64,000 bases of DNA from Polyangiales bacterium (GTDB lineage: Bacteria; Myxococcota_A; Polyangia; Polyangiales; Ga0077539). Position numbers and translations under genes: made by a program. This document shows positions 51,781 through 58,394 of the stretch, in pieces (the stretch's first letter is position 1; each line of letters starts with the position of its first letter). The notes below the pieces were generated by a model, which was not told the origin of the DNA, searched no databases, and saw only the letters and a program-made list of their open reading frames with translations. The DNA is taken from positions 608,001-672,000 of the forward strand of contig JBGARZ010000003.1 of assembly GCA_044229975.1 (NCBI GenBank), read 5' to 3'.

Positions 51781-52668
51781 ATGGGCGATCAACGCACGGC
51801 CTGGCACTACTACTTCGGGCTGTTGCTGACGGAGAAGGCGCCGCGCTGCTTCGAGGTGCAGCCCGAGGTCGCGCTCACGCAGGCGGTGCAGCACATCGAC
51901 TACCTCCTGCTCCGACGACGTCCGTGGAGCGCGCCGCCCGACCGCGGCGAGACGCTCGTCGACCTGTGGCCCGAGCTCCCGCTCATCAGCCTCGGCGAGT
52001 ACAAGAGCGCGTCGCGTCAGTACCGTCGCGGGGAGATTCACCGCCTCCTCGGGTACGGGCACCAGTACGCCAGCGAGCACGTCGAGGAGCTCATCGCGGG
52101 AGAGCTCGCGCTCGTGCTCTTCGTGGCTTCCCGCAACAAAGCCCTCGACGAGGACCTCCACCGGCTCGGCGCGCGCGAGCGGTCTCTCGGCGGTGGATAC
52201 ACCCGCATCGAGGGCGTCGCCTTCCCCATGCTGCGGGTCGACCTGTCGGCCGTCGCGGCGCGCGATCACGACGACTTCGTCGCCCTCTTCGCCGAGGCGG
52301 TGCCCATCCCCGAGGAGGCCCGCGACTGGTGGTACGGTCACTACGGAGCAAGCAAGGAGATCACCATGGACGCCAAGCGACGCGAGGAGTTCGAAGAACT
52401 CGAACGACGGTTCATCGAGTCACAGCCCATCGAGCGACGGCTCGCGGGGCTCGACCCCGAGGCCATCGCCCGCGCGCTCAAGCCCGAGCAGCGACTCGCC
52501 GGGCTCGCTCCCGAACAACGACTCGCTGGACTGACCAGCTCCGAAGCCGTGCTCGCGATGCCCGATGTCGTGCTCGCGGGTCTCACCGACGCCTTCGTCG
52601 ACACGCTCCCCGACGACGTCCGCGAGCGCGTGCGCACCCGCCGCGCGACCTACGCCGCCGGTCACTGA
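51781..52668 (+). CDS. Rpn-like PD-(D/E)XK nuclease-fold protein with C-terminal EQRLAGL repeats
   Basis: QHIDYLLL...LGEYKS; tail ERRLAGLDPE / EQRLAGLAPE / EQRLAGL. Confidence 0.65.
   Translation: MGDQRTAWHYYFGLLLTEKAPRCFEVQPEVALTQAVQHIDYLLLRRRPWSAPPDRGETLVDLWPELPLISLGEYKSASRQYRRGEIHRLLGYGHQYASEHVEELIAGELALVLFVASRNKALDEDLHRLGARERSLGGGYTRIEGVAFPMLRVDLSAVAARDHDDFVALFAEAVPIPEEARDWWYGHYGASKEITMDAKRREEFEELERRFIESQPIERRLAGLDPEAIARALKPEQRLAGLAPEQRLAGLTSSEAVLAMPDVVLAGLTDAFVDTLPDDVRERVRTRRATYAAGH
52366..52668 (+). CDS. Putative intragenic in-frame small protein (RpnS-like, 100 aa)
   Basis: AAGGAG at 52354-52359, 6-nt spacer, in-frame ATG at 52366 at the nuclease/repeat-tail boundary. Confidence 0.5.
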   Translation: MDAKRREEFEELERRFIESQPIERRLAGLDPEAIARALKPEQRLAGLAPEQRLAGLTSSEAVLAMPDVVLAGLTDAFVDTLPDDVRERVRTRRATYAAGH

Positions 52669-52933: not shown

Positions 52934-55900
52934 CTACGGCTCCTCCCCCGAGCGGTACACGTCGTAGTGCTCGGCGCCGTCGTAGGCCAGCCGGATGGGG
53001 TTGTCGTCGCGCAGGCTCGACGCCGTCACCGGCACCTGCCCCGCCTCGTGGATCACCACCCCGCGCGAGAGAATGCCCCCCGCGATGCCCGCCTCGAAGG
53101 CGCTGCCCAGGAAGTGCCCGCCGCGCACGGCGGTGCGGTAGGCGTTGAGCTCGTCGTACCAGCGGAAGCCCACCTCGCCTCGCTGACGCGCGCGAAACAT
53201 CTCCCCGATGCACTCCTTCAGCGCGGGGTCGCCGATGCGCGCGCCCGCCCCGTCGACCGCGGCGCGTGAGTCGTTGATGGGCGGGAGGCTCGCGAAGAGC
53301 GCGTCGATCTCCCCGCGAATGGGCCCCTCGTAGGCGCGGTCCATGAGGTCGTCGGCGACGGCCGCGCGCAGGGTCGCGGCGGTGTGGCCTTCGAGCCCGC
53401 GGTCGGTGGCGCCGCGGGCGAGCGCGGCGAAGAGCGAGTCGGCGCCTCGCGGAATCGGGATGATCTTCGACGGGGGTTCGACGACGTCGTCCTCGGGCGG
53501 CGGCGGCGGTACCCCGTCGGGGCCGCCGATGTGCAGGTGGGGGATGCCGGGGCGCGCCCAGGGCGAACCCGCGGAGGGGTTCTCGAAGCGCGTGAGCATG
53601 TCGACCATGCACTCGATGGCCTTCTTCAGCGTGCGCTGCGTGAAGGTCTCTTCGACGTGCCCCGCCTGGCGCTTGTACTCCCAGATGAGGTCGCGCAGCG
53701 CGAGCACGGGGTAGCCCCGCACGAACGCGAGCTGCGGCCAGTCTTCGCCGCACTTCTGCACCGTGATCTTCAGGACGAGAGGGGTGTACGTGAAGCCCTC
53801 GCCGAAGCCGACCTCCGCGGGCCAGTACAGGCAGATGGAGTCCTCACCGTGGAGCTCGACCTTGAACTGCGTCGACTGCGGGTGTTCGAGGTACTGCACC
53901 ACGAGCGGGTGGATGAGCTCGCGCACCGTCGCCGGGTCTGCGTCGCCCTTGCAGTAGATCTTGAGGTCGACGCGGCGCAGCGGGTCGAGGTCGTCGGTGC
54001 GCTCGAAGTCCGCGTACTCGGCGTGGAGCATCGCGGCGAAGCTCCCGGCGACGGCGAAGCGCACCTCCAGGTCGTCCTCGTGCGCGAAGACCGACGCCGT
54101 GTAGATGGCCTTCACGAAGGCCCCGAGCACCGCGCGCTGCTCCTTCATGAACTTCGCCCGCGGCCCCGCCATGTGCTTGCCGACCGACTCCGCCACCCAC
54201 TGCGCGAACCCGATGCAGTCGCAGAGGCTCTCGTAGTCGCCGTTGTAGCCCGCCTGCTTCGCGATGGCGTCGGTGAGCGCGGGGGGATACTTCGCCTTGG
54301 CCTTGCGCGCGCCGAGGTTGGCGGAAAACAGCGTGTCGAAGCACGCCGCGAGGCCCGGGTCGACGTCGAGGTCGAGCGCCTCCGCGAACTGCTTGAGCAG
54401 CACCGTCAGCACCGACTTCTCGGCCACTGGTAGGCCGTCGACGGGCCCCACGCTCGCGGGGAGAATCTCCGGCGGGATGTGCGATCGCTCGCGCGCCACG
54501 TACTGCGCGAGGCCCGGCAGCACGAGCACCTCGCGCAGGCGCATCACGCGCTTCGGCGTCTTGCCGAGGGAGATGGTGCCGCCCGCGAAGATGTCGCGGA
54601 TCATCATCACATACTCGGCCACATAATAGAGGTGACCGGGGATGGGCATGCCGTCGACCACCATGAGGTCGGGGACGAAGTGCTCCCACTGCTCGAAGGC
54701 CTCGACGGTGTCGCGCCGGGGAATGCCGATGTCGATGAGCTCGGCCTTGCAGTTCTCCTTCACCACGTCGAGCTGGAACTCCTCGTCCTTGTCCTCCTCG
54801 GGTTCTCGCGTATCGGCGATGCGAATCGCGTCGTCGGCCTGCACCTCGCCGACCTCTTCGAGGGACGTGAGCAGCGAGTCGATGTCATCGCCCACCCGCG
54901 CTTCGTCGCCCTCCTCGGTGGTGCTCGCCTCCTGCGCGCGCCACTCGTCGACCGCGGCGCCAAACTCGTTGGCGTGCGCGTGGCACTGGATCACGAACTC
55001 CGCCTTCGCCTCCTGCAGGAAGACCAGCACGAGGTTGTGCACCTTCAGGAAGTTTTCGTACCAGGCGCCCGCGCGGAGGTTGGGGTTGATGACGATCTGC
55101 GTGTCCCAGTCGTTTTCGCCCTTCGTCGGCAGGCCCACGAGGTACTTCGCCGCGCGGCCGCCCTTGAGGAAGAAGCGCACGTCGTCGCCGCACGCGCCGT
55201 GCAGCCGCCCGTTGAGGTCGACGAGCTTGTCGCGCAGCCAGGTGAACAGCCACGCCTGCCGCTCGTGGTTGTGCAGCAGCGACGTGAGCACGCCGCTGAC
55301 CTCGATGCGCTTGGACGACGGGATGGCGCCGCCCGCCTCGATGCGAAACTTCACCAGCAGCCGAAACAGGTAGAAGGGCTCGATGATGTGGAAGTTCTGG
55401 ATGCAGCAGAGCCCGCTGTGGACGCGGCTCATCTCGCGGTGCGCCTGACCGAGCTTGCGCGCCACCTTGTCGAGGTCTGACCACGCGGCGGCGCGGCCGA
55501 TGTCGACGTCGAGGCCCGCGAGCCAGCGGTCGGCCGCGGTCAGCGCGGGCACGGCCACCTCGCCGTTGCTGTAGAACGACCGAACCGTCAGCAGGTTGGT
55601 GAGCGCGCGGGTGGCGCGGGCGCGGGCCGCGCCGGAGAGATCCGTCTTGTCGTCGACGCCCTCGGCCGCGGCCTCGCGCAGCTTGCCGAGGTCCTTCTCC
55701 ACCTTGTCGATGAGCTCGTTGACGCCGCCTTCGGCGTCCTTCGCCTGCGCCATCAGCCGCGGCGGCGTCGACTCGAAGTAGCAGAACTTCGACAGCTCAT
55801 CGCCCTCCTTCGCCTTGCGCGCGTCGTCGTCCGTGATGCCGCGCGAGGCGTCGCGCACGAGCCGCTGGTAGGTGTTCTGCAACGCCTGGAGCGGGTGCAC

Positions 55901-56521
55901 CGAGGCGGCGGCCCAGAGGAGCGCAGCGTCCTTCTGCTTGGGGTATACGACGTCCGCGCCGGTCTTCCGACTGGCCAGCGCCGCGAGCTCGCCGAAGAGG
56001 TCGGACGGCTCCCAGATCAGCTTCGCCAGCGGGTCATCGGAGTCGGGCCAGTCGAAGTCGTCGTAGCGCTTCTGCAGCCCCACGATGACGTCCCGCGCGC
56101 GCAGCAGGTAGAAGCTGAGCATGTCCCCGAGGAGCTTCTTCTCGCGCTCCGTGCGGCCGAAGTTCTGCCCCTTCCAGTAGGCGCGCGGCGGCTTCGCGGT
56201 GCCCTCCTCTTCGAGCGACACGTGCGCGCTCATCTGCCCGCTGCCGAAGATGCGCTCCATGATGACGTCGGTGTCATCGCCGGGGCGAAACTTCCGGCTC
56301 CAGAGCGAGCGGTGCAGCGTGACATGGGCGGGCAGCGTCGCGAACTCGCCGAGGTCTTCGCGCGCCCGGCGCCCCCGCTCGCTCTCGTCGGTGAGCTCGC
56401 CGCCGTAGCCGTCGGTGTGGTTGATGCCGACGGTGGCGGCGTTCGGGTCGTCCTGCGCGATGCCGAAGCCGAGCTTCTCGTACCACTCCATCTTCGTCGC
56501 GGTGAGGATCTTCCTGGGCAT
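52934..56521 (-). CDS. Large multidomain protein: two nucleotidyltransferase-fold domains + C-terminal OTU-like domain (Cys>Ser)
   Basis: FFLKGGRA...NDWDTQI...ELIDIGIP; FAVAGSFA...RVDLKI; IPRGADSLFAAL...LRAAVA...IRLAYDGAEHYD; GGAGG RBS before ATG 56521. Confidence 0.72.
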   Translation of the reverse strand: MPRKILTATKMEWYEKLGFGIAQDDPNAATVGINHTDGYGGELTDESERGRRAREDLGEFATLPAHVTLHRSLWSRKFRPGDDTDVIMERIFGSGQMSAHVSLEEEGTAKPPRAYWKGQNFGRTEREKKLLGDMLSFYLLRARDVIVGLQKRYDDFDWPDSDDPLAKLIWEPSDLFGELAALASRKTGADVVYPKQKDAALLWAAASVHPLQALQNTYQRLVRDASRGITDDDARKAKEGDELSKFCYFESTPPRLMAQAKDAEGGVNELIDKVEKDLGKLREAAAEGVDDKTDLSGAARARATRALTNLLTVRSFYSNGEVAVPALTAADRWLAGLDVDIGRAAAWSDLDKVARKLGQAHREMSRVHSGLCCIQNFHIIEPFYLFRLLVKFRIEAGGAIPSSKRIEVSGVLTSLLHNHERQAWLFTWLRDKLVDLNGRLHGACGDDVRFFLKGGRAAKYLVGLPTKGENDWDTQIVINPNLRAGAWYENFLKVHNLVLVFLQEAKAEFVIQCHAHANEFGAAVDEWRAQEASTTEEGDEARVGDDIDSLLTSLEEVGEVQADDAIRIADTREPEEDKDEEFQLDVVKENCKAELIDIGIPRRDTVEAFEQWEHFVPDLMVVDGMPIPGHLYYVAEYVMMIRDIFAGGTISLGKTPKRVMRLREVLVLPGLAQYVARERSHIPPEILPASVGPVDGLPVAEKSVLTVLLKQFAEALDLDVDPGLAACFDTLFSANLGARKAKAKYPPALTDAIAKQAGYNGDYESLCDCIGFAQWVAESVGKHMAGPRAKFMKEQRAVLGAFVKAIYTASVFAHEDDLEVRFAVAGSFAAMLHAEYADFERTDDLDPLRRVDLKIYCKGDADPATVRELIHPLVVQYLEHPQSTQFKVELHGEDSICLYWPAEVGFGEGFTYTPLVLKITVQKCGEDWPQLAFVRGYPVLALRDLIWEYKRQAGHVEETFTQRTLKKAIECMVDMLTRFENPSAGSPWARPGIPHLHIGGPDGVPPPPPEDDVVEPPSKIIPIPRGADSLFAALARGATDRGLEGHTAATLRAAVADDLMDRAYEGPIRGEIDALFASLPPINDSRAAVDGAGARIGDPALKECIGEMFRARQRGEVGFRWYDELNAYRTAVRGGHFLGSAFEAGIAGGILSRGVVIHEAGQVPVTASSLRDDNPIRLAYDGAEHYDVYRSGEEP

Positions 56522-56535
56522 CGCGTGACCTCCCG

Positions 56536-57888
56536 TCAGGCTTCCAGCTTGAGCTGTACGAGCAGCGGCCAGTGCCGCGACAGCGATCGCGCGAAGTAGC
56601 TGCACTGCGCCAACGCGTTGACGGCGTCGTCCTCGGGCGACGTGCCGTGCCGCGACGCCGTGGCGTACGCCGTGCGCTGCGCGACGAGCGAGCCCAGCTC
56701 CGGGGCCGCGGCTCCGTCGGCCGTGGCCGTGGTCGGCGTCGCCCGCAGCGCCGCGGCGCGACCGGGCGGCAGCGCGGCGGCGAGCAGGTCGACGACCCGC
56801 AGCTCCTGCACCACCGGCGGCGGCGTCACGAGGTGATGAACAACCGCCAGCCCATCACCCAGGTGACCAGGCAGACGGTCGGCGCCCTGCGGGTGCGCGT
56901 GCGGCTTGATGGCCTCCCAGTGCATCTGCCGATCTTGCAGATGGATGTCCGCCGGGTTGACGGCGGCGAAGCTGGCGAGGAGACCGTCGTGGCGCTCGGT
57001 GGTCACCTTCCAGAAGTCGTCGCCCAGCACGGTGCCGCACGCGCTCGGTCGGATGAACTCCGCGTCGAACTCCTCCTCCAGCTCGCGCAGCCCCTCCGCC
57101 GCGTCGCCGGGCGCGGAGACGAACAGCAGCGCCGAGTCGGGCATCGGGGCCGTCGGCTCGCGCTCCTCCGGGGTGGCGGCCACGCGCAGCGACTCCCACG
57201 GGCGCTCTGGCGTCGTGAGCCCGAGCGAGGCCACCACGCACACCGGCTCGGCGCGGTAGGCCGGGGCGGAGAAGGTCGCGGCGATGAGCGAGCCGGTCAC
57301 CCCGGCGGACTCCATCACCGGCGCCTCGATCACGTCCGTCTTCTGGAGCGCGAAACCCTTGCCCGACGCGTACAGAAACGCCACCGTGGTCCAGCGGTCG
57401 TAGAGGGTGGCGCCGGTCTTCCGGTCGCGGGGCAGCACCAGCTGCCAGCCGCTACCACCGTCGATGGACTGGAGCTTCGCGAGGATGCGTCGCACCTCGG
57501 CCACCCCGGAGTCCGCGGGCGCGTCTTCGAGCGCGACGTGCGCCGTGGGCCCCGACCCCCGCCGGACAGGCACCTTCTGCACGTTGCGGGTGATGCCTGC
57601 CAGCACGACGACGTGGACGTCGAGCGACGCGATGAGGTGCGCGTACGCGTCGATGGCAAACTGCGGCCGCACCGTCGGGGTAAACAGTCCGCCGCCCAGC
57701 TCGGAGACGTGCCAGAAGACCACCCGCGCGGGCGGCTTGGAGCGGACCTCGTCCTGGGCGTCGCGCGGACGGGGTGCGAAGGGACACGGAGCGACCGCGG
57801 GGGTGCCGCGACGTGCGGGCGCATCGGCGGCCGCGAGCAGCGCATCGAGACGCTCGTTGGGCGGAGCGCCGGGCAGGGGAATGGGCAT
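56536..57888 (-). CDS. Degenerate EEP (DNase I-like endonuclease/exonuclease/phosphatase) fold protein
   Basis: RVVFWHV (cf. xWNV), IASLDVHVVVLAGI (cf. D...LQE), AFLY, terminal LSRHWPLLVQL (cf. SDHxP). Confidence 0.55.
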   Translation of the reverse strand: MPIPLPGAPPNERLDALLAAADAPARRGTPAVAPCPFAPRPRDAQDEVRSKPPARVVFWHVSELGGGLFTPTVRPQFAIDAYAHLIASLDVHVVVLAGITRNVQKVPVRRGSGPTAHVALEDAPADSGVAEVRRILAKLQSIDGGSGWQLVLPRDRKTGATLYDRWTTVAFLYASGKGFALQKTDVIEAPVMESAGVTGSLIAATFSAPAYRAEPVCVVASLGLTTPERPWESLRVAATPEEREPTAPMPDSALLFVSAPGDAAEGLRELEEEFDAEFIRPSACGTVLGDDFWKVTTERHDGLLASFAAVNPADIHLQDRQMHWEAIKPHAHPQGADRLPGHLGDGLAVVHHLVTPPPVVQELRVVDLLAAALPPGRAAALRATPTTATADGAAAPELGSLVAQRTAYATASRHGTSPEDDAVNALAQCSYFARSLSRHWPLLVQLKLEA

Positions 57889-57889
57889 C

Positions 57890-58240
57890 TCAGCCCTCCC
57901 GGTCGAGGCGTCGCAGGGCGGCCCGCCAGACCTTGCGGACGCGCAGCGTGGCGTTGGTGATGGTCGGGTCGCGCATGCCCTGGTCGATCCACGCGACGTC
58001 GGGTCGCTGCCAGTCGGCGCCGAAGATCATCGCGAGGTCCATGAGTCGTAGCTGGTCGTCGGTCTGACCGACGCCGTACTCGCCGCAGCGTCGAACGACC
58101 TCGGCGACGGCGGCCTTGAGCTTCACCGCACCGAGCGCCGAGGCCGCGCCGGCGTGGACGGTCTCGGCGTGCGTGAGCAGGAGCTTGTGACTGACGACCG
58201 CGGAGAGGGTGTGAATCTGCGCGGTTCGAATCTTCAGCAT
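57890..58240 (-). CDS. Small helical protein resembling the C-terminal domain of DUF4123/T6SS-adaptor-associated proteins
   Basis: MLKIRTAQ...RCGEYGV...MDLAMIFGADW...W pattern; 1-bp gap to the next gene. Confidence 0.55.
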   Translation of the reverse strand: MLKIRTAQIHTLSAVVSHKLLLTHAETVHAGAASALGAVKLKAAVAEVVRRCGEYGVGQTDDQLRLMDLAMIFGADWQRPDVAWIDQGMRDPTITNATLRVRKVWRAALRRLDREG

Positions 58241-58394
58241 CGTGGCATCGGGTCCGTCGGTGGGGTGCGGCATCGTAACCGTGCGCGAGAGGACGACGAT
58301 GGAGGAGCGCGTTCAACAAATGTTTGGGGGGTAGCGTCTCCGTCGGGTGGCTTCAGCGATGCACACCCCGAGCGCTTCGTCGCCTGCGGCTGGG

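Follow-up and report, generated by a model that had tools for sequence, protein, structure and literature searches.

MenT toxins tail tRNA, as described in parts of PMC7450476 and PMC11375011. In the account given in PMC4402537, the Megavirus poly(A) polymerase pairs a catalytic nucleotidyltransferase (NT) domain, which is prolonged by one helix, a hairpin, and a pair of helices, with a dead copy that lacks the first helix. Passages of PMC3482391 describe polymorphic toxins, in which a constant core is combined with variable C-terminal enzymes, among them caspase-like, papain-like, and OTU tails. R-body-carried toxins had not been identified until a 2026 preprint (PMC13733733) described one; according to its text, R-bodies deliver a nucleotide-modifying toxin to amoebae. 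We analyzed a stretch of 64,000 nucleotides from a Polyangiales bacterium (contig JBGARZ010000003.1, positions 608,001 to 672,000; here called the window). It contains P0001, a single minus-strand open reading frame (ORF; 56521-52934, i.e., 52934..56521) that encodes a nucleotidyltransferase (NTase) of 1,195 residues and starts at the same Met as its close homologues.

By its sequences, the P0001 family is an uncharacterized effector-type family of known fold, in which the transposition of a segment is demonstrated, the link to delivery systems is strong, and the chemistry is putative. For P0001 itself, we tentatively propose a toxin, likely exported by a type VI secretion system (T6SS), that would tail RNA 3′ ends in a target cell. 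Taken as a whole, we rate this proposal at somewhat less than an even chance; its parts are of different strength and are weighed below.

The two nucleotidyltransferase domains of P0001

An earlier note, made from the letters alone, had described two NTase domains in one chain, one intact and one degenerate, within positions 53640 to 55200. All the motifs it cited lie in a single frame of the minus strand. Domain 1 carries FFLKGG (55174-55157), DWD (55111-55103), EEDKDEEF in an acidic insert (54799-54776), ELIDIGIP with the third Asp (54742-54719), GMPI (54652-54641), and KTPKRVMRL (54562-54536), while FAVAGS (54058-54041), RVD (53974-53966), and GYPV (53716-53705) lie in domain 2. The range given includes these motifs but leaves out the OTU-like tail and residues 176 to 396, a part of domain 1.

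A homologue search with residues 370 to 990 yielded 179 homologues among 7,995 scored candidates, and the best 120 of the 179 were aligned. In domain 1, K453-G454-G455-R456-A457, D471, D473, K592, E594, D597, K654, R658, and R661 were invariant in 120/120, so the cited motifs exceed chance. The catalytic conservation also holds across 52 relatives with unrearranged domains (see below), and in the FYLFRL strand I380, F383, L385, and R387 were invariant in 120/120. Alignment and model place KGGRA and D471-W-D473 in the first half of domain 1 (residues 400 to 535; 54917..55324, minus strand). They place KAELID597, then one helix, a hairpin, and a pair of helices with K654xxKR658xxR661 in the second half (residues 587 to 682; 54476..54763, minus strand). 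Domain 1 is thus predicted to display the Pol-beta-type NTase motif pattern, with hG[GS], DxD, and a third Asp on the expected elements. Because the triad and the basic helix are invariant, we consider it highly probable that domain 1 is active, as a metal-dependent nucleoside monophosphate (NMP) transferase.

A helical linker in the model (residues 683 to 792; 54146..54475, minus strand) leads to domain 2 (residues 793 to 982; 53576..54145, minus strand), for which alignment and fold comparison indicate an NTase fold without the acidic triad. G826 was kept in 109/120 homologues. At the DxD site the first position was acidic in 1/120, the second in 60/120, and both in 1/120, so that the catalytic triad appears to be missing, and the description of one intact and one degenerate domain of the same fold stands. 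Domain 2 of P0001 is net acidic (21 K+R versus 30 D+E). Sequence homology of one domain to the other was not detectable (BLAST E 0.25; hhalign E 0.2). The sole stretch that hhalign aligned was the G[M/Y]P[I/V] segment, which the earlier note had correctly seen after each domain. Since this comparison is insignificant, it is the fold, and not the sequence, that argues for an internal duplication. Searches of P0001 against Pfam (E<=1), PDB sequences, PADLOC, NCBIfam, and PHROGs gave no match, and no relatives were found in IMG/VR or phage records. Nor did the listings include an RNA holder.

The AlphaFold model of P0001 has a mean pLDDT of 84.7 and a pTM of 0.79, with low confidence in the acidic insert, the proline-rich linker, and the tail (tail pLDDT mostly 50-77). 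Residues 788 to 982, comprising domain 2, matched MenT1 with Z 11.1-11.7 (root mean square deviation [rmsd] 3.4-3.7; 146-147 residues aligned), TM1012 with Z 10.9, LnuA with Z 10.8, and also ANT(2''). Domain 2 is therefore NTase-like, a point on which the earlier note had staked its reading. When domain 1 was folded alone and compared to 48,161 chains, the best match was 5uvd (Z 8.6, rmsd 4.7, 166 residues aligned), and MenT1 (Z 8.0), ANT(2'') (7.6), LnuA (7.4), and the Megavirus poly(A) polymerase (5.3) were found as well, along with MenT3 and FKRP. Every one of the top 13 matches was an entry with a nucleotidyltransferase fold or from a nucleotidyltransferase system. Such Z values are modest because the construct lacks the transposed strand described below. 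Together, the comparisons indicate that both domains are predicted to adopt the NTase fold.

MenT1, MenT3, and AbiEii (DUF1814) represent the nearest characterized toxin fold for both domains and share hG[GS] and DxD with P0001. A proposed link to MenT/AbiEii toxins holds in that MenT1 is among the nearest solved folds, but no AbiEii profile matched. P0001 further differs in its two domains, its core of about 800 residues, its rearranged strand order, its invariant KxxKRxxR helix, the absence of a MenA-type antitoxin, and an extracellular-delivery context. MenT3 has a motif III Lys (K189) and a motif IV Asp (D211) (PMC7450476); as aligned among the homologues, the C-terminal helices of P0001 domain 1 appear to carry E636 and K654/R658/R661 in place of this pattern. 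ANT(2'')-Ia, LnuA, TM1012, and Paracoccidioides 5uvd share the compact NT fold with a hairpin and two helices (Z 7-11). They are, however, transferases with one domain that act on small molecules, or else proteins of unknown function, and P0001 lies in no resistance context.

The architecture resembles that of the poly(A) polymerases of Megavirus, Mimivirus, and vaccinia virus. As in the published description (PMC4402537), a catalytic NT domain precedes a dead one, the order of the predicted elements is the same (domain 1: helix 606-618, hairpin 620-627, helices 630-666; domain 2: hairpin 931-940, helices 942-980), and the intervening helix is absent from the dead copy. By the model, P0001 thus has the tandem of catalytic and dead NT domains. 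The poly(A) polymerase 4wse aligned across both domains with Z 9.9, although the rmsd was 11.1 and the identity about 10%. P0001, in contrast, is a bacterial chromosomal gene without a match to PF19244, and neither profiles, PDB sequences, nor viral genes suggest membership in the viral family. Foldseek against BFVD at E<=0.001 gave one match for the whole model (best E 3.8e-4) and none for domain 1. Hence, of the poxvirus and giant-virus link proposed earlier, the active-plus-dead architecture survives; Pfam and IMG/VR gave no membership, and the fold matches were weak. An origin as a giant-virus gene was rejected because P0001 lies on a bacterial chromosome between ordinary genes.

The earlier note had also entertained a nucleotide-signal enzyme of the CD-NTase kind. 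This found no support: PADLOC matched 0/12 proteins, no Cap effectors of the cyclic-oligonucleotide-based antiphage signaling system (CBASS) were found as neighbors, and a CBASS/CD-NTase assignment was rejected. Related to it is the idea that P0001 is a delivered effector that makes a cyclic or linear nucleotide signal or drains nucleoside triphosphates (NTPs), for instance by moving NMP onto a metabolite. The fold neighbors ANT(2''), LnuA, and FKRP, which use small molecules, would agree with this, as would a NUDIX gene at one reb locus and DeaR, another R-body cargo, which alters nucleotide pools according to PMC13733733. On the other hand, CdnE and cGLR matched domain 1 with just Z 4.3-4.4, PADLOC found nothing, and no receptor-type gene recurs near the family loci. 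We regard this explanation as rather unlikely.

A transposed segment in domain 1

The domain 1 profile matched 415 cluster representatives at E<=0.001, and the 150 listed among them include a second group of proteins of about 600-900 residues. In the NTase fold, a strand of the FYLFRL kind usually lies between the DxD half and the third-Asp half. Segment profiles place an HPLQ subdomain and the FYLFRL strand of the second group in exactly this position, with the DxD half before them and the ELID half after. In P0001, the same two elements lie N-terminal of the GG motif. The transposed segment, as delimited by segment profiles and motif order, spans residues 176 to 399 (55325..55996, minus strand) and comprises the HPLQ subdomain, an optional four-helix bundle (residues 262 to 370), and the FYLFRL strand. 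The bundle is missing from one subfamily.

Both orders were counted across the family. By segment profiles, 223 of 303 proteins were rearranged and 15 clearly unrearranged, 53 had no detectable strand match, and 12 were otherwise arranged. In a model-free count of the FxLxRL motif over 312 sequences, some of which are redundant, the motif occurred only before GG in 196, only between DxD and ELID in 32, and at both sites in 0; 56 lacked FxLxRL and 28 lacked another anchor. The median distance from FxLxRL to ELID was 190 residues in the rearranged proteins versus 36 in the unrearranged ones. At the vacated site, the rearranged proteins carry a short acidic linker (median, 41 residues; 26% D+E). 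In P0001 this is the acidic insert (residues 536 to 586; 54764..54916, minus strand), defined by the segment profiles and low pLDDT, with 21 D+E of 51. The earlier note had seen that this insert splits domain 1 but had missed its nature: it is the scar at the place that the transposed segment occupies in the unrearranged relatives.

In the model, two long strands span residues 383-396 and 587-601, and when residues 176 to 399 were removed, the 587-601 strand shrank to four residues. Because of this shrinkage, we infer that the two strands pair and complete domain 1. In a tree of the shared halves (64/119 rows; IQ-TREE LG+G4 without mixture, unrooted), the 34 rearranged rows formed one side of a branch with support of 100/97. 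General fold topology suggests that the usual order is ancestral, and the transposition may have come about through a partial duplication, with opposite halves lost afterward. Two cyanobacterial loci (L028:3084-12628 and L052:327-12232) share a conserved operon of unannotated genes, the last of which is an NTase with a long acidic head. The NTase is rearranged in L028 and unrearranged in L052, within the otherwise shared operon.

Delivery loci and exchangeable heads and tails

The setting of these genes, with its signs of toxin delivery and of exchangeable heads and tails, had escaped the earlier note. We scanned GTDB and obtained 62 family loci, in which genes were called and clustered; the loci are kin. 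RebB R-body clusters were identified by Pfam in 18/62 loci, with the cluster on the other strand in L020 and one reb gene downstream in L044. In Azospirillum Az39, a family member of 1,174 residues (L068:7905-11429; ABAZ39_RS31955) directly follows a six-gene RebB cluster. Ralstonia syzygii, Eleftheria, and Methylibium likewise have an unrearranged family member in their reb clusters. XaxA/YaxA and XaxB genes were present in 5 loci, and L038 has a XaxA-like gene, giving 6/62; the YaxA/XaxA assignment was supported by E 2e-143. An unclassified gene pair occurred in 14/62 loci, 4 of which also have XaxAB genes, and another unclassified gene in 3. The pair consists of paralogues of 420-480 residues that precede the NTase (L024:5307-8036 and 13 other loci), and the other gene encodes 390-410 residues and precedes the NTase in the group of L047:1109-2290. 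Neither gave a Pfam, NCBIfam, or useful PDB match, and each may represent another module, either for delivery or for pores.

In two XaxAB operons, the first 103-117 residues of the NTase are common to an otherwise unrelated neighbor (50% and 61% identity). These neighbors (L024:8067-9635 and L031:6455-8032) lie between the XaxAB-type toxin genes and the NTase and have unrelated bodies; the one in L024 ends in HxG ... CxxC, which we take to be deaminase-like, with no library match. The shared head is a candidate cargo or loading tag for the XaxAB operons. Next to the XaxA-like gene of L038, the NTase core stands behind a region of 830 residues that contains coiled coils and one hydrophobic stretch (L038:7424-11968; also P0114 and P0121). 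The head of this 1,514-residue protein had no useful PDB match, and the protein could be a self-translocating toxin. Relatives of P0001 thus occupy the position of cargo in R-body operons and in those of the XaxAB/YaxAB type, and they exchange heads and tails. Because they adjoin R-body and pore-forming toxin genes, a secreted toxin is likely, and we consider it quite probable that P0001 is a delivered effector.

The R-body context has a precedent. The 2026 preprint mentions, in one phrase, an unnamed 'nucleotidyltransferase' (label 31), a candidate CEDR, in Burkholderia reb clusters (PMC13733733). In our Burkholderiaceae scan (396/401 genomes scored), two loci repeat its gene order with an unrearranged family member: reb genes, a 366-residue gene, small genes, the NTase, and a muramidase-type hydrolase. 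Because of this repetition, label 31 is probably an unrearranged relative in the same family, which has then probably been flagged once before, unnamed. In the figure text of the preprint, the rows of Azospirillum Az39, Phreatobacter, and Bradyrhizobium, which hold rearranged members, lack label 31, and the full-length homologue in the same position of the Az39 cluster is unlabeled there. The literature searched, which leaves out most subscription papers, gave no account of the rearranged family, nor of the T6SS-type operon or the link to XaxAB; PMC13430693, PMC9503650, and PMC7824862 likewise contributed nothing.

The window operon differs from these arrangements. Directly upstream of P0001, and nearly gapless, lie a gene for 127 residues (58273-57890, i.e., 57890..58273, minus strand) and one for 450 residues (57888-56536, i.e., 56536..57888, minus strand). 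The 127-residue protein has no Pfam family and may be an adaptor. The 450-residue protein has what we take to be an EEP/DNase-I-like motif pattern, with the majority of catalytic positions altered. An alignment of 5 homologues showed a terminal SxHWP and invariant D345 and H439, and Pfam, NCBIfam, and PDB sequences gave no match. The order of 127-residue gene, EEP-like gene, and NTase is repeated in L067, L002, L009, L014, and L037; the window-type operon, with an EEP-like gene before the NTase, was counted in 5/62 GTDB loci plus L067. An assembly artifact was ruled out because the operon recurs in L067 and four genomes.

The host genome (10.0 Mb, 71% GC, 39 contigs, 93% complete) encodes a T6SS sheath and 15 vgrG-type matches. 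A paralogue of the 127-residue gene (E 4e-6) on the same contig lies directly after vgrG and before a 556-residue gene, with a PAAR gene nearby, and it is by this position that the gene in the window operon would be an adaptor. In the same genome, L069:8348-13948 holds vgrG followed by the 127-residue paralogue and genes for 556 and 266 residues. L070:7121-10100 holds a doubled paralogue of 264 residues before a 728-residue gene with a weak zincin match. L069 and L070 are likely further T6SS cargo operons. A T6SS sheath was found in 6/6 genomes with the window-type operon but also in others (see below), which is why we grade T6SS export of P0001, a reading of gene content, as likely. No tube match of an extracellular contractile injection system (eCIS) was found in the genome, with the control also silent. 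No cognate immunity gene was found in the window operon or its flanks.

The flanks are ordinary (succinate dehydrogenase, class II glutamine amidotransferase, and amidohydrolase), and neither a promoter nor an informative terminator was detected in the operon. Convergent with the toxin gene is a 295-residue gene (51781-52668, plus strand) that ends in short repeats (EQRLAGL) and has no library match; presumably it resembles the transposase-like proteins frequent in myxobacteria. The closest named homologues of P0001 are from Pyxidicoccus and Myxococcus, and the host has no paralogue of it. The domain 1 profile matched 0/60 related genomes (8 of the same genus) and 0/400 phylum genomes, both sets being samples with partly incomplete genomes. 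A metagenome scan with the single protein P0001 found one locus. On the metagenome contig of L067, an ORF that we take to be integrase-like (L067:506-1687) is found 2 kb upstream of the three-gene operon that recurs there, which is consistent with mobility.

This patchy distribution, together with the MenT-like fold and AbiEii-labeled clusters among the Atlas look-alikes of P0001 (which serve as leads only), could also point to an intracellular abortive-infection or toxin-antitoxin NTase of the AbiE/MenAT type, with the EEP-like protein as antitoxin. We find this very doubtful: PADLOC and AbiEii profiles gave no match, the neighbors of family loci are extracellular-conflict genes and not those of defense islands, and phage and viral sets held no relatives.

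The N-terminal head of P0001 (residues 1 to 175; 55997..56521, minus strand) is subfamily-specific by head comparison and is a candidate export tag. It was found in 25/75 long heads, and no shorter homologue of it was present among 235 candidates. Other heads in the family include a lectin propeller, the 830-residue helical region, and one that is presumably LysM-like. At the other end, a proline-rich linker (residues 983 to 1020; 53462..53575, minus strand) marks the junction at which homologues differ in their tails or end. The tail of P0001 (residues 1021 to 1195; 52937..53461, minus strand) is tentatively OTU-like. In a 6-tail alignment, the catalytic Cys position was Cys in 1/6 and His was kept in 6/6; P0001 has Ser1029 and His1185, so its tail appears to lack the catalytic Cys. 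The best PDB profile match was human OTUD5 (weak, E 0.071), with which the His loop and a G-x-x-E segment align. Unlike OTU deubiquitinases, the tail falls below Pfam detection, with no PF02338 match.

Among 215 full-length rearranged proteins, 129 had no tail of 110 residues or more, and the rest had at least seven tail types: 48 caspase-like, 23 papain-like, 6 OTU-like, 3 helical, 2 J-domain, and 1 USP, with 3 more that we take to be ADP-ribosyltransferase-like. The caspase-like label is our own, presumed from a His-Gly / D-x-C pattern without a Pfam match; both residues were kept in 29/35 of the tails caught by this pattern. The C termini of P0012, P0013, and P0020 are tails of about 410 residues with LYRG and S-x-NT motifs and no Pfam match, presumably resembling ADP-ribosyltransferases.

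Such variety raises the idea that the double-NTase core serves the delivery machine as carrier or assembly enzyme and that the variable C-terminal domain is the true toxin. This would correspond to the polymorphic-toxin layout of PMC3482391, the passages of which do not describe a double-NTase core. Against it, most of the 215 proteins have no such tail, the window tail lacks Cys, and the same core is found with unrelated machines. The L067 protein stops just past the proline-rich linker, so the tail is dispensable. We therefore hold a carrier role to be improbable.

Proposed function and implications

The Legionella DrrA/SidM domain NMPylates a host protein, and P0001 might likewise be a delivered effector that does so through domain 1, the target being selected by domain 2 and the four-helix bundle. 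All the effector-context evidence fits such an activity. Domain 2 is net acidic, the tails are protein-directed enzymes, and the bundle resembles those of the vinculin/catenin type (Z up to 12.5, a range common for helical bundles). The bundle is, however, missing in one subfamily, and no AMPylase is among the fold neighbors listed, an absence that excludes nothing. We consider protein NMPylation unlikely, if the most credible of the alternatives.

Our preferred reading remains that of an RNA-tailing toxin. Given a delivered effector with an active domain 1, we rate RNA as the acceptor at about an even chance. The toxin would probably be exported by the T6SS of its own producer. Domain 1 would use NTPs to add nucleotides to tRNA or mRNA 3′ ends, which would block translation. 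Domain 2 may act as a scaffold or clamp the substrate, a role that the dead copy may also have in the viral poly(A) polymerases. The 127-residue and EEP-like proteins may help to load or restrain the toxin, and the OTU-like tail may be an accessory module that binds ubiquitin or peptides, probably with weak catalysis. A eukaryote (protist) would be a more likely target than a bacterium.

Several points weigh against this reading. ANT(2''), LnuA, and FKRP, whose folds are equally close, have small-molecule substrates (antibiotics or CDP-ribitol). A net acidic domain 2 is no obvious RNA clamp. The two-domain poly(A) polymerase match has the high rmsd given above, giant-virus matches are weak, and Foldseek of the whole model against the PDB gave nothing at E<=0.001, with poly(A) polymerase at E 0.02. 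Protection of the producer's own RNA lacks an explanation. As to delivery, the T6SS sheath was also present in 3/4 tested hosts without the window-type operon, and no vgrG or PAAR gene lies in the window operon or its flanks. The window gene lies outside a reb cluster, and the host genome, at its 93% completeness, had no RebB match, with the control also silent. In the family, 20/62 loci have no recurring neighbor (several are on short contigs) and 13/62 have only unclassified ones; as the 62 loci are related, they are not independent observations.

A wider account would join these elements: a two-domain design like that of viral poly(A) polymerases, turned into an RNA-tailing toxin against eukaryotic predators, rearranged once when a core strand moved to the N terminus, and plugged into three unrelated machines (R-bodies, XaxAB-type pores, and T6SS) through swapped N-terminal tags. 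We think it unlikely that all of this applies. If it does, XaxAB/YaxAB-type operons would deliver tagged enzyme cargo, beyond cell lysis. The family allows a direct test for tagged enzymes in such pore operons. Should the enzyme turn out to be a carrier or one more protein AMPylase, the family would be a useful new group of effectors and no more. The family supplies a conserved and assayable toxin candidate for many reb clusters, among them the one in the crop inoculant Azospirillum Az39. The transposed core strand is a natural, non-cyclic rearrangement of an enzyme fold in which both orders and the scar are visible. A eukaryote-directed RNA-tailing effector, if confirmed, would show chemistry of the MenT type used in attack, beyond self-poisoning.

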